12,534 nt of DNA, taken from NCBI RefSeq assembly GCF_003334355.1, contig NZ_QOWP01000053.1; one strand, 5' to 3'. The DNA comes from Escherichia coli. Lineage in GTDB: Bacteria > Pseudomonadota > Gammaproteobacteria > Enterobacterales > Enterobacteriaceae. Shown one piece after another: positions 217 to 2,866 of the stretch; position 1 is the first letter of the stretch, and every line of letters starts with the position of its first letter. Both the position numbers and the translations under genes were made by a program. The notes under the pieces were generated by a model, which saw nothing but the letters and a program-made list of their open reading frames with translations, was not told where the DNA came from and made no database searches.

Positions 217-244
217 ATTATAGGGAGAGTTCAAAATGAGTCAA
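217..244 (-). promoter_or_regulatory. Promoter of the tRNA-Val operon (stringent type)
   Basis: On the minus strand: -35 TTGACT (244..239), a 16-nt spacer, -10 TATAAT (222..217), then a GC-rich discriminator (GCGACCCC) about 10 nt before the mature tRNA 5' end. An AT-rich UP-like region lies further upstream (245..300). Confidence 0.7.
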
Positions 245-457
245 CGCATTTTCTAAAGAAATTGTTCGTTCGTCGTAAATTTAAGCAAGATGATCGCAAA
301 ACAGACCGTGTTGCGCAATTTGTCAACGAAAACAATAATGCGTAAGGTAGAAACCCGAACTACATTGAGGAATCAGGCGGGAGTGATAGAATATCGCCCA
401 CTCAATTTTTCCAGGATTTGCCGGTTGTCGGCATCTTTCTAAACGTAAGGCCATTTC

Positions 458-1873
458 ATGAAAATCAAAACTCGCTTCGCGCCAAGCCCAACAGGCTATC
501 TGCACGTTGGCGGCGCGCGTACTGCTCTTTACTCCTGGCTTTTTGCACGTAACCACGGCGGTGAGTTCGTGCTGCGTATTGAAGACACCGATCTTGAGCG
601 TTCCACGCCGGAAGCTATCGAAGCCATTATGGATGGCATGAACTGGCTGAGCCTGGAGTGGGATGAAGGTCCGTACTACCAGACCAAACGTTTTGATCGC
701 TACAACGCGGTGATCGATCAGATGCTGGAAGAGGGCACTGCTTATAAATGCTATTGCTCTAAAGAGCGCCTGGAAGCGCTGCGCGAAGAGCAAATGGCGA
801 AAGGTGAGAAGCCGCGTTATGACGGTCGCTGCCGCCACAGCCATGAGCATCATGCTGATGATGAACCGTGTGTTGTACGTTTTGCTAACCCGCAGGAAGG
901 TTCTGTTGTTTTTGACGATCAGATCCGTGGTCCGATCGAGTTCAGCAACCAGGAACTGGACGATCTTATTATCCGCCGTACCGATGGTTCCCCAACCTAT
1001 AACTTCTGTGTGGTTGTCGATGACTGGGATATGGAAATCACCCACGTTATCCGTGGCGAAGACCATATCAACAACACGCCACGCCAGATCAACATTCTTA
1101 AGGCCCTGAAAGCGCCGGTGCCGGTTTACGCGCACGTTTCTATGATCAATGGCGATGACGGTAAAAAACTGTCCAAACGTCACGGGGCAGTCAGCGTAAT
1201 GCAGTATCGTGATGACGGTTATTTGCCAGAAGCACTGCTGAACTATCTGGTGCGTCTGGGCTGGTCCCACGGCGATCAGGAAATCTTCACTCGTGAAGAG
1301 ATGATCAAATACTTCACTTTGAATGCCGTCAGCAAATCTGCCAGTGCGTTCAACACCGACAAGCTGCTGTGGCTGAACCATCACTACATTAACGCGCTGC
1401 CGCCGGAGTATGTTGCTACTCACTTACAGTGGCACATTGAGCAGGAAAATATCGATACCCGTAACGGCCCGCAGCTGGCTGATCTGGTGAAACTGCTGGG
1501 CGAACGCTGCAAGACGCTGAAAGAGATGGCACAGAGCTGCCGTTATTTCTACGAAGATTTTGCTGAGTTCGATGCCGACGCCGCGAAAAAACATCTGCGT
1601 CCGGTAGCGCGTCAGCCGCTGGAAGTGGTTCGTGACAAACTGGCCGCGATTACTGACTGGACCGCTGAAAACGTTCATCACGCTATTCAGGCGACGGCGG
1701 ATGAGCTGGAAGTGGGTATGGGTAAAGTTGGTATGCCGCTGCGTGTCGCCGTAACCGGTGCGGGGCAGTCTCCAGCACTGGATGTTACCGTTCACGCAAT
1801 TGGTAAGACCCGCAGTATCGAGCGTATCAACAAAGCGCTGGATTTTATTGCTGAACGCGAAAATCAGCAGTAA
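458..1873 (+). CDS. gltX: Glutamyl-tRNA synthetase (class I aaRS), 471 aa
   Basis: Full-length ORF with the HIGH-type motif ([15 protein letters not shown]), the KMSKS-type motif (KLSKR) and the Cys/His zinc-binding cluster (CYC...CRH) typical of E. coli GluRS. A weak RBS (TAAGG) precedes the ATG. Confidence 0.97.
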
Positions 1874-1885
1874 TTAGCGTGTAAA

Positions 1886-1924
1886 AAGATAAACGGCAGG
1901 AGATAATATCCTGCCGTTTTTTAT
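1886..1924. terminator. Bidirectional rho-independent terminator between convergent gltX and yfeD
   Basis: Stem CGGCAGGA (1894..1901), loop GATAATA, stem TCCTGCCG (1909..1916), flanked by an A-run upstream and a T-run downstream. Confidence 0.8.
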
Positions 1925-2317
1925 TTATGCTGATTCGTCAATATCGAGACGGGCGAGGAAATTGCGAATTCCTTCACGTGACAAAAATTGCGCGACTTTT
2001 TCCTGCTCAATGTCTGTCATATTATCTATCGCGTTGATGATTTGTCGATACGCCGGGGCGCGTGCTCCAGGAGCGTATTCAGCAATTCTCTCTTCAGCTT
2101 CCATCAACATTGGTGTGTTATGGAAGGCTGGCGTGTTCTGAATAAACTCGCAAACTTGCGTATCGACCAGAATAAGTCTGGCACGACCGCCTTTCACGCC
2201 GGGAAATTTTTCCGTTTTCCAGCCTTTTTCTCTGATCCAACGGTTAACAGTTTGTTTAGCCACACCGAGGCATTCAGCCAGTTCTTCGGTGGTCATTTTA
2301 TTGCGTAATCTTTTCAT
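1925..2317 (-). CDS. yfeD: Small putative DNA-binding protein (HTH-like N-terminus), 130 aa, paralog of YfeC
   Basis: ORF of 130 aa. The N-terminal ELA..G....QT.N.W.R.KGW segment and the C-terminal REGI..L.RL motif are shared with the adjacent YfeC. Recognised from recall as the E. coli YfeD family. Confidence 0.85.
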   Translation of the reverse strand: MKRLRNKMTTEELAECLGVAKQTVNRWIREKGWKTEKFPGVKGGRARLILVDTQVCEFIQNTPAFHNTPMLMEAEERIAEYAPGARAPAYRQIINAIDNMTDIEQEKVAQFLSREGIRNFLARLDIDESA

Positions 2318-2318
2318 A

Positions 2319-2663
2319 TTATTTGCTATCGCGAATCCCTAAGCGTTGTAACAATCCGATAATCCCTTCCCGCAGAAGCAAGGATGTAAACTGTTTTTGT
2401 TCAACTGGCGTCATCTCTTTCGCCAGTGTCACCAGCAATACTTCAAGCGGCGCATCACCAGAAAGGGCAGGCGCTTCTCCCTGACCTTCTGGACGTTCAG
2501 CATTGCGAATATATTCACGAACCTGTTCATTGACGTGAACCAGTCGGGCTTTGCCACCCTGGACGCCAGGTTTTGGTGACGTTGTCCAGCCTTCCTTGCG
2601 TACCCATTTATTAATGGTCTGGCGGCTATAGCCGGTCAGTCTGGCAAGTTCATCTGGTGTCAT
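2319..2663 (-). CDS. yfeC: Small putative DNA-binding protein (HTH-like), 114 aa from the preferred start
   Basis: The ORF extends to 2678, but the ATG at 2661..2663 is preceded on the coding strand by AAGGAGAGG, a strong Shine-Dalgarno sequence, so MTPDELARL... is the likely N-terminus. The stop lies 1 nt from the yfeD start codon. Confidence 0.85.
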   Translation of the reverse strand: MTPDELARLTGYSRQTINKWVRKEGWTTSPKPGVQGGKARLVHVNEQVREYIRNAERPEGQGEAPALSGDAPLEVLLVTLAKEMTPVEQKQFTSLLLREGIIGLLQRLGIRDSK

Positions 2664-2837
2664 CCTCTCCTTGAACATAACAATTCCCTGAATGTATGTG
2701 GGTCTATTAGTAGTTCATTTTATAACACCACTTTACAGGAAACCGTGACATGAATAACTACTGAATGCGAGCGGTTTTCCAAAATTGTTCATTTGCCTGA
2801 TTTTTCAGCGATTGAAACTACACGTTGCAATTTGCCG

Positions 2838-2866
2838 TTGACACATTCGGGCGGAATTCATATGAT
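2838..2866 (+). promoter_or_regulatory. Promoter of tRNA-Ala (stringent type)
   Basis: -35 TTGACA (2838..2843), a 17-nt spacer, -10 TATGAT (2861..2866), then a GC-rich discriminator (GCCGCCCG). An AT-rich UP-like stretch lies upstream (about 2780..2835). Confidence 0.7.

Follow-up and report, generated by a model that had tools for sequence, protein, structure and literature searches.

Promoters of the tRNA operons valU and alaW, divergent from gltX and yfeC, in an Escherichia coli genome

Two near-consensus hexamer pairs stand in front of tRNA genes in a 12,534-nt stretch of Escherichia coli DNA (the window), one back to back with gltX and the other with yfeC. Are they promoters of these tRNA units, and do they belong to the stable-RNA type that responds to growth rate and ppGpp, as a first-pass annotation of the sequence had proposed? 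Both elements are real and known promoters, those of the E. coli tRNA operons valU and alaW, first described in 1990. To judge by their titles, Brun et al. 1990 (J Mol Biol 214:845) had already studied the valU and alaW promoters, and Champagne & Lapointe 1998 (Mol Microbiol 27:1141) FIS at gltX/valU. The promoter observation is thus correct but ordinary and is partly confirmed below; its interpretation is supported.

The window is the gltX region of E. coli. Alignment of positions 200-2898 matches K-12 MG1655 at 2,697/2,699 bases, and the gene order valU-gltX-yfeD-yfeC-alaW is common to both (features in Table 1). One of the two mismatches, T to C, falls within the valU discriminator at -3, and the other lies in the gltX 5'UTR. 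Further on, K-12 and the window differ at a rate of 24 per 7,023 bases and IS186C is missing from the window, which is therefore a natural close relative of K-12; on the same grounds a laboratory-evolved K-12 was ruled out as the source of the two gltX-valU spacer SNPs. There are two tRNA-Val copies in the window, two in the BW25113 record and three in MG1655; tRNA-Ala(GGC) is present once in the window and twice in K-12 (alaW, alaX). The window begins at the second tRNA-Val gene of the valU operon, with lysV expected further left. An Rfam scan of 1-3300 returned nothing besides the three tRNAs, and a search for a structured gltX leader gave a fold of 375-470 that was no better than shuffles (z = 0.19).

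Table 1. Features of the valU-gltX-yfeD-yfeC-alaW region, in window coordinates
Feature	Position	Strand	Evidence or remark
tRNA-Val(UAC), second gene of valU operon	2..77	-	ARAGORN; Rfam tRNA 65.9 bits; identical to K-12 valY
tRNA-Val(UAC), promoter-proximal, mature 5' end G199	124..199	-	ARAGORN; Rfam
valU leader, 9 nt, start A208	200..208	-	distance from PMC4176162; A208 and A206 invariant in 64/64 species
valU discriminator GCGACCCC, 7/8 G+C	209..216	-	sequence; species alignment; C at -3 (window G211) rare, usually T
valU -10 hexamer TATAAT	217..222	-	promoter scan; invariant in 64/64 species
valU -35 hexamer TTGACT, 16-bp spacer at 223-238	239..244	-	promoter scan; invariant in 64/64 species
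valU UP-like element CGAACAATTTCTTTAGAAAATGC	246..268	-	12/14 UP consensus; top-scoring 22-mer of the window; A/T pattern kept across genera
Candidate Fis site GCTTAAATTTACGAC, centre -71 from valU start	272..286	.	heuristic 8.1; 3/4 critical bases; at least 3/4 kept in 64/64 species
Candidate Fis site, centre -91 from valU, -76 from gltX A375	292..306	.	heuristic 9.05; 4/4 critical bases; all kept in 46/64 species
Candidate Fis site, centre -112 from valU, -55 from gltX A375, -80 from A400	313..327	.	heuristic 9.2; 4/4 critical bases
gltX promoter TTGAGG-16-(TG)TAGAAT, start A400; second start A375	365..400	+	promoter scan; Kim et al. 2012 supplement
gltX, glutamate--tRNA ligase	458..1873	+	ORF list; RefSeq annotation
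Two-way terminator hairpin between convergent gltX and yfeD	1891..1919	.	11-pair stem; T runs on both strands
yfeD, putative transcription regulator	1925..2317	-	ORF list; annotation
yfeC, transcription regulator (MG1655 start codon)	2319..2663	-	annotation
Candidate Fis site GCCTGATTTTTCAGC, centre 2802	2795..2809	.	heuristic 9.75 of possible 9.9; all 4 critical bases kept in 70/71 species
alaW -35 hexamer TTGACA, 17-bp spacer at 2844-2860	2838..2843	+	promoter scan; invariant in 71/71 species
alaW -10 hexamer TATGAT	2861..2866	+	promoter scan; TATGAT in 26/71, TATTAT in 45/71 species
alaW discriminator GCCGCCC	2867..2873	+	sequence
alaW leader, about 25 nt for a start at G2874	2874..2898	+	placed from -10 and tRNA positions
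tRNA-Ala(GGC), single gene	2899..2974	+	ARAGORN; Rfam; annotation
Intrinsic terminator of alaW unit	2982..3005	+	10-pair stem, then TTTTTG

Core promoters and transcription starts

The hexamer pairs described earlier, TTGACT-16-TATAAT on the minus strand and TTGACA-17-TATGAT on the plus strand, were recovered at their positions. They are the top two promoter-like matches and the only ones in the 12.5-kb window to reach 11/12 of the consensus. Measured against the sigma-70 pattern (TTGACA/TATAAT-like hexamers, 16-18 bp apart), valU gives 11/12 with 16 bp and alaW 11/12 with 17 bp; the -10 is perfect in valU and the -35 in alaW. Each pair lies directly upstream of its tRNA unit and in the right orientation, 17 nt (valU) and 32 nt (alaW) from the mature 5' end.

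Published mapping bears on where transcription begins. In a circularisation-cloning study (PMC4176162), valU transcription was found to begin 9 nt before the mature tRNA 5' end, compared with 7 nt in EcoCyc. The 9-nt distance leads to A208, directly after the discriminator and the ninth base after TATAAT, and the start-site comparison, which covers valU, thus places the published start right behind the predicted core. The valU leader is invariant in 61/64 species. For alaW, the positions of the core and the tRNA point to G2874 as the probable start; no alaW start was found in the published start-site and promoter-mapping studies examined. SMRT-Cappable-seq, Mendoza-Vargas 2009, Cho 2014 and Romero 2014 contain no valU or alaW entries, and the start-site list of Kim et al. 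2012 is one of protein genes only.

Conservation was followed in two sets of Enterobacteriaceae, 64 species for valU and 71 for alaW. The two -35 hexamers, the -10 of valU and the two discriminators show little or no variation there. In the same species the Fis-like sites retain their critical bases and the flanking DNA varies; the cores and upstream Fis-like sites of both promoters are almost frozen across the family. Among 5,426 E. coli genomes the valU and alaW promoter regions are nearly invariant.

Discriminators and upstream elements

The GC-rich discriminators that had been claimed are present, GCGACCCC with 7/8 and GCCGCCCG with 8/8 G+C, against 50% G+C for the whole window. The alaW form occurs in 67/71 species, and 63/64 species carry GCGACTCC as the usual valU form. 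Directly after the -10, valU and alaW both read G-C, like rrnB P1; C instead of G at the second of these bases is said, in work by Haugen et al. from 2006, to make a non-optimal contact with sigma region 1.2. The T-to-C change at -3 of valU is the sole unusual detail of the region, and this allele is found in 8 of the 5,426 E. coli genomes. It could change open-complex stability, start-site choice or the ppGpp sensitivity of the valU operon.

AT-rich, UP-like DNA had been described upstream of both promoters, and here the two part company. The 22 nt upstream of the valU -35 have 27% G+C and match 12/14 specified UP positions (rrnB P1 matches 11/14), a score of 12 being reached by 2 of about 25,000 22-mers in the window. 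The corresponding alaW stretch has 45% G+C and a UP score of 4-8/14, and it is the least conserved part of the alaW promoter across species; the description therefore holds for valU but not for alaW. In the rrn P1-type class a UP element is common, not obligatory.

Fis sites were scored with an ad hoc rule set based on the literature; the motif is degenerate, and sites scoring at least 8 number 79 in 12.5 kb. Applied to rrnB P1 of MG1655, the same heuristic recovered the sites at -71, -102 and -143. The suggested scan for Fis and UP elements bore out the valU UP match, a Fis-like site at -71 of valU and another at about -72 from the probable alaW start, but not an alaW UP match. The alaW candidate is centred at -79 from the yfeC start; its score is equalled but not exceeded elsewhere among 12,514 positions, the probability that so high a score would occur within 7 positions being about 0.001, and its non-critical positions vary across species while the critical bases persist. 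The candidate at 313..327 behaves likewise, with all four critical bases kept in 63/64 species and the other positions varying.

The tRNA promoters were also said to be divergent from gltX and yfeC, and published starts agree: for gltX they are A375 and A400 (+) and for yfeC 2723 (-), with a yfeC 5'UTR of 60 nt (Kim et al. 2012 supplement, PMC3415461; positions recalculated for the window). In both intergenic regions the divergent starts flank the Fis-like sites, those of valU being at -55 to -121 relative to gltX, so that upstream regulation shared between the tRNA promoters and gltX or yfeC is geometrically plausible. Shared regulation of gltX and valU is the subject that Champagne & Lapointe 1998 states in its title. 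We found no published report of a Fis-site link of YfeC/YfeD expression to tRNA-Ala synthesis. A FabR ChIP-chip peak at Salmonella gltX-valU is uninformative on the promoter question.

A stringent-type reading and its alternatives

The explanation that best fits these features, to which we give a probability of roughly 0.88, is that both elements are sigma-70 promoters of stable-RNA units, valU (tRNA-Val and tRNA-Lys) and alaW (tRNA-Ala GGC), and are of the stringent type, with the Fis and ppGpp parts predicted from sequence signatures. At valU, the UP element would recruit the C-terminal domains of the RNA polymerase alpha subunits, and at both promoters strong hexamers, together with UP and Fis where present, would allow frequent initiation when cells grow fast. 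With a GC-rich discriminator the open complex would be short-lived, and initiation would as a result respond to ppGpp/DksA and to the level of the initiating nucleotide. Because of this sensitivity, valU and alaW output would drop when cells starve or grow slowly. Lying between the back-to-back promoters, the Fis-like sites may affect gltX and yfeC too.

There are other ways to account for parts of this picture. The hexamers might be chance look-alikes of the consensus, with the tRNA units transcribed from elsewhere. Consensus scans do give many false matches (19 in the window, compared with 14.2 expected from shuffles), and no alaW start was found in the studies examined; yet 11/12 matches averaged only 0.19 per 12.5 kb in 300 dinucleotide shuffles of the window, two or more arising in 1.7% of them. 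The distances of 17 and 32 nt to the mature tRNA 5' ends, the mapped valU start immediately downstream of its -10 and the invariance of both -35s (64/64 and 71/71 species) and of the valU -10 (64/64) also argue against coincidence, which we regard as barely credible. Better placed, though still very unlikely, is the idea that the promoters are strong but essentially constitutive and that other constraints, for instance on the leader or on processing by RNase P, account for the GC-rich discriminator. Regulation is read here from sequence signatures; the valU leader is short and highly conserved, so its start-proximal bases are possibly constrained by RNase P recognition, and alaW departs from the typical rrn P1 promoter in lacking a 16-bp spacer and a UP element. 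However, tRNA synthesis in E. coli is, as a class, under stringent and growth-rate control. The discriminator, moreover, precedes the start and is outside the RNA, but that of valU is invariant in 63/64 species. A GC-rich discriminator is the established determinant of ppGpp/DksA inhibition and facilitates regulation by DksA and ppGpp (PMC4681348).

An alternative confined to alaW, and in our judgment also very unlikely, is that some factor besides Fis binds the conserved block at 2795-2817 in its place, for example YfeC or YfeD as a regulator of its own promoter. The block's position at -79 from the yfeC start and an inverted repeat, TTTCA-N5-TGAAA (2803-2817), present in Escherichia, are in its favor. 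Yet conservation of the right arm of the repeat does not extend beyond Escherichia, whereas 70/71 species retain the 15-mer with its Fis-critical G, R, Y and C; the spacing of the repeat is 5 nt, not 6; and the centre at about -72 matches the canonical position of Fis site I, as recovered at rrnB P1. In addition, alaW and alaX are both absent from the text supplements of the YfeC ChIP-exo study (PMC8464067). YfeC binding at alaW was dropped as a candidate on the strength of those text supplements and of the Escherichia-only repeat. Two extensions of the stringent-type reading, which we weighed jointly, seem doubtful to us: that the -3 change in valU is functional, and that the alaW/yfeC Fis-like site couples YfeC/YfeD expression to tRNA-Ala synthesis and growth phase.

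The result has little importance beyond annotation. It confirms that two classic stable-RNA promoters were correctly located by reading the sequence alone. Of modest practical value are the precise Fis site prediction for alaW/yfeC and the natural single-base variant of the valU discriminator, a possible ready-made probe of discriminator function.

Comparison with known promoters

By sequence and synteny, the locus is the same as that of the K-12 valU and alaW promoters, from which it differs in tRNA copy numbers and 2 bases. Among regulated promoters, rrnB P1 is the closest parallel to valU: taken from MG1655, its core aligns closely with that of valU (CTCCCTATAATGCG, then a C-rich stretch and a start at A). 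The two share a 16-bp spacer, TATAAT, an 8-nt GC-rich discriminator beginning GCG, an A start nine bases after the -10, a UP element and a Fis-like site at -71. They differ in the -35, where rrnB P1 has TTGTCA and valU the better TTGACT, and in the further Fis or Fis-like sites, which lie at -102 and -143 in rrnB P1 and at -91 and -112 in valU. With its 17-bp spacer and no UP-like element, alaW is less rrn-like; it also has TATGAT and a single Fis-like site. The tRNA promoters tyrT and thrU(tufB) are Fis-activated sigma-70 promoters with a GC-rich discriminator and an upstream activating region in which the proximal Fis site is near -71. Both valU and alaW resemble them in sigma-70 type, in the GC-rich discriminator and in a predicted proximal Fis-like site near -71, and differ in that their upstream regions are shared with divergent protein-coding promoters, those of gltX and yfeC.

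The locus and its relation to K-12

The window is E. coli chromosome around gltX, running opposite to the MG1655 map, with the valU operon, gltX, yfeD, yfeC, alaW/alaX and pdeA in that order. When 5,426 complete E. coli genomes were searched by megablast, the best matches were K-12 strains. Between positions 200 and 2898, where the MG1655 coordinate equals 2521130 minus the window position, only two bases (211 and 403) differ from MG1655 and BW25113. There are no differences from MG1655 between 2899 and 5401, and beyond 5390-5401 the two differ at 24 of 7,023 bases. The promoter pair is the K-12 valU/alaW pair itself and is already known. 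By their declared subjects, Brun et al. 1990 dealt with the valU and alaW promoters and Champagne & Lapointe 1998 with shared regulation of gltX and valU.

Coordinates of tRNA genes, promoter hexamers and candidate Fis sites
Feature	Position	Strand	Distance from valU start	Source
tRNA-Val(UAC)	2-77	minus		ARAGORN
tRNA-Val(UAC)	124-199	minus		ARAGORN
valU hexamers TTGACT-16-TATAAT	244-217	minus		consensus scan, 11/12
Candidate Fis site	centre 279		-71	15-mer scoring
Candidate Fis site	centre 299		-91	15-mer scoring
Candidate Fis site	centre 320		-112	15-mer scoring
alaW hexamers TTGACA-17-TATGAT	2838-2866	plus		consensus scan, 11/12
tRNA-Ala(GGC)	2899-2974	plus		ARAGORN

The window holds two Val tRNA genes and one Ala(GGC) gene, versus three and two, respectively, in both MG1655 and strain PSS-04; the BW25113 record likewise has only two Val genes. 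The lower copy number could reflect assembly collapse, a possibility raised by the many draft contigs that end within these tRNA repeats, or real recombinational loss. The alaW/alaX genes are the only alanine tRNA genes with a GGC anticodon, and their double deletion impairs growth in minimal medium (PMC11480407).

Several other features were noted. IS186C, which lies between nupC and pdeA in K-12, is absent from the window (5390-5401). The last 122 bases (12413-12534) are an IS3 end, 100% identical to annotated IS3 copies, that interrupts fryC; K-12 lacks an insertion there. One 11-pair hairpin (1891-1919) with T runs on both strands forms a two-way terminator between the convergent gltX and yfeD. 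At two loci outside the window (L001, 1266-1391; L004, 2647-2772), RefSeq annotates an RtT-like small RNA directly downstream of lysV in the valU operon.

Core promoters, transcription starts and discriminators

The first-pass annotation, made from the sequence alone, had proposed two stringent-type tRNA promoters with near-consensus hexamers and GC-rich discriminators. Both hexamer pairs are real: they are the top two matches of a consensus scan and the sole 11/12 matches in the window, and 300 dinucleotide-preserving shuffles of the window gave a mean of 0.19 such matches, with two or more in 1.7% of shuffles. They are correctly oriented, 17 or 32 nt upstream of mature tRNA 5' ends. The eight bases after the -10 elements, GCGACCCC (valU) and GCCGCCCG (alaW), are indeed GC-rich against a window mean of 50% G+C. 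We conclude that valU and alaW are most likely strong σ70 stable-RNA promoters.

Cloning of circularised transcripts placed the valU operon start 9 nt upstream of the mature valU 5' end, versus 7 nt in EcoCyc (Agrawal, Mohanty and Kushner, PMC4176162). This start converts to A208; counting from TATAAT, the 8-nt discriminator comes first and A208 is the ninth base, in keeping with the proposed promoter. For alaW we infer G2874, the eighth base after TATGAT, which is invariant across species. The published gltX starts convert to A375 and A400 (plus strand) and the yfeC start to 2723 (minus strand; Kim et al. 2012 supplement, PMC3415461); A400 agrees with a consensus-scan match, TTGAGG-16-TAGAAT, at 365-392. 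Given the mapped valU, gltX and yfeC starts and the inferred alaW start, the promoters lie back to back as had been claimed, the valU start 167 and 192 bp from the gltX starts and the alaW start about 150 bp from that of yfeC.

A GltX scan taking one genome per species yielded 80 Enterobacteriaceae loci, in most of which gltX is likewise accompanied by several tRNA-Val genes and by tRNA-Ala genes, arranged as here. Among 64 distinct valU sequences, the -35 TTGACT and -10 TATAAT are invariant, the leader is nearly so, and DNA from about -80 to +9 is almost frozen, with variation farther upstream. Discriminator plus start read GCGACTCCA in 63/64, the sole exception being the window. Among 71 alaW sequences, the -35 TTGACA is invariant and the discriminator GCCGCCCG occurs in 67; the -10, which differs between genera at window base 2864, reads TATTAT in 45 species and TATGAT in the other 26, including Escherichia, and none of the 71 has the consensus TATAAT. 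Across all 5,426 E. coli genomes, stretches 200-270 (valU) and 2795-2898 (alaW) are essentially invariant.

The window's valU discriminator, GCGACCCC, has C at -3 (window G211) where the usual GCGACTCC has T. The C form is present in only 8 of the 5,426 genomes and in 0/63 other Enterobacteriaceae species. It looks like a lineage marker, since the carrier PSS-04 differs from the window at 3 of 2,699 bases. At window 403, +4 of the gltX A400 transcript and freely variable among species, C replaces T. The gltX 5'UTR contains a conserved hairpin (419-433), TGCCGGTTGTCGGCA followed by a T-rich run; the whole gltX leader folds no better than shuffles (z = 0.19).

UP-like DNA and predicted Fis sites

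AT-rich, UP-like DNA had been claimed for both promoters; this holds for valU but not for alaW. The 22 nt upstream of the valU -35 are 27% G+C and match 12 of the 14 specified positions of NNAAAWWTWTTTTNNNAAANNN, reportedly the UP consensus of Estrem et al. 1998. The rrnB P1 control, taken from MG1655, scores 11/14 in the same register, and only two of ~25,000 window 22-mers reach 12, both being the valU element. The corresponding alaW DNA is 45% G+C and scores 4-8/14. The 71 sequences show no conservation between the alaW Fis-like 15-mer and the -35 region, consistent with a missing UP element.

Fis sites had been suggested as shared upstream elements, and a scan gave sequence matches upstream of both valU and alaW. 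Scoring of 15-mers looked for G and C at -7 and +7 and for R and Y at -3 and +3, respectively; A at -4 or T at +4 was penalised, and AT-rich centres and flanks earned a bonus. Applied to rrnB P1 as a control, it recovered sites at -71, -102 and -143, the three footprinted Fis sites of that promoter. The scoring rules are said to come from Shao et al. 2008.

The three valU candidates are spaced about two helical turns apart, at -55 to -121 from the gltX starts. The -71 candidate keeps at least three of four critical bases in 64/64 species; all four are kept in 46/64 at -91 and in 63/64 at -112. The alaW candidate, GCCTGATTTTTCAGC, is centred at 2802, at -72 relative to G2874 and -79 relative to the start of yfeC. 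It scores 9.75 (maximum 9.9), tying for best among 12,514 positions, and the chance of such a score inside the 7-position target is ~0.001. All four critical bases are kept in 70/71 sequences, with variation at non-critical positions. Because the motif is degenerate, these sites count as binding predictions only; the alaW/yfeC one may or may not already stand in Brun et al. 1990.

An inverted repeat, TTTCA-GCGAT-TGAAA (2803-2817), overlaps the alaW candidate; its right arm is unconserved outside Escherichia. Upstream of pdeA, GGATGAAAAATCGGC (3080-3094, centre 3087) equals the window's best Fis-like score and sits between published pdeA starts, converted to about 3050 and 3148.

Proposed regulation and comparison with rrnB P1

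We propose that valU would be driven by near-consensus hexamers and its UP element, probably also by Fis, and alaW by its own hexamers, probably with one Fis dimer near -72. Since a GC-rich discriminator is the established determinant of DksA and ppGpp regulation (PMC4681348), the stringent response should switch both promoters off and their activity should follow growth rate, as sequence signature and class behaviour suggest. Effects of the Fis-like sites on gltX and yfeC are plausible because the sites lie between divergent promoters. YfeC is a regulator validated by ChIP-exo, with 50 sites, and that study reported no tRNA link for it (PMC8464067).

Compared with the rrnB P1 type, valU shows every sequence-level feature examined, and its start-to--10 geometry is identical to that of rrnB P1. 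The alaW promoter shares the discriminator and, through its predicted site, the Fis position, but has neither a UP element nor a 16-bp spacer.
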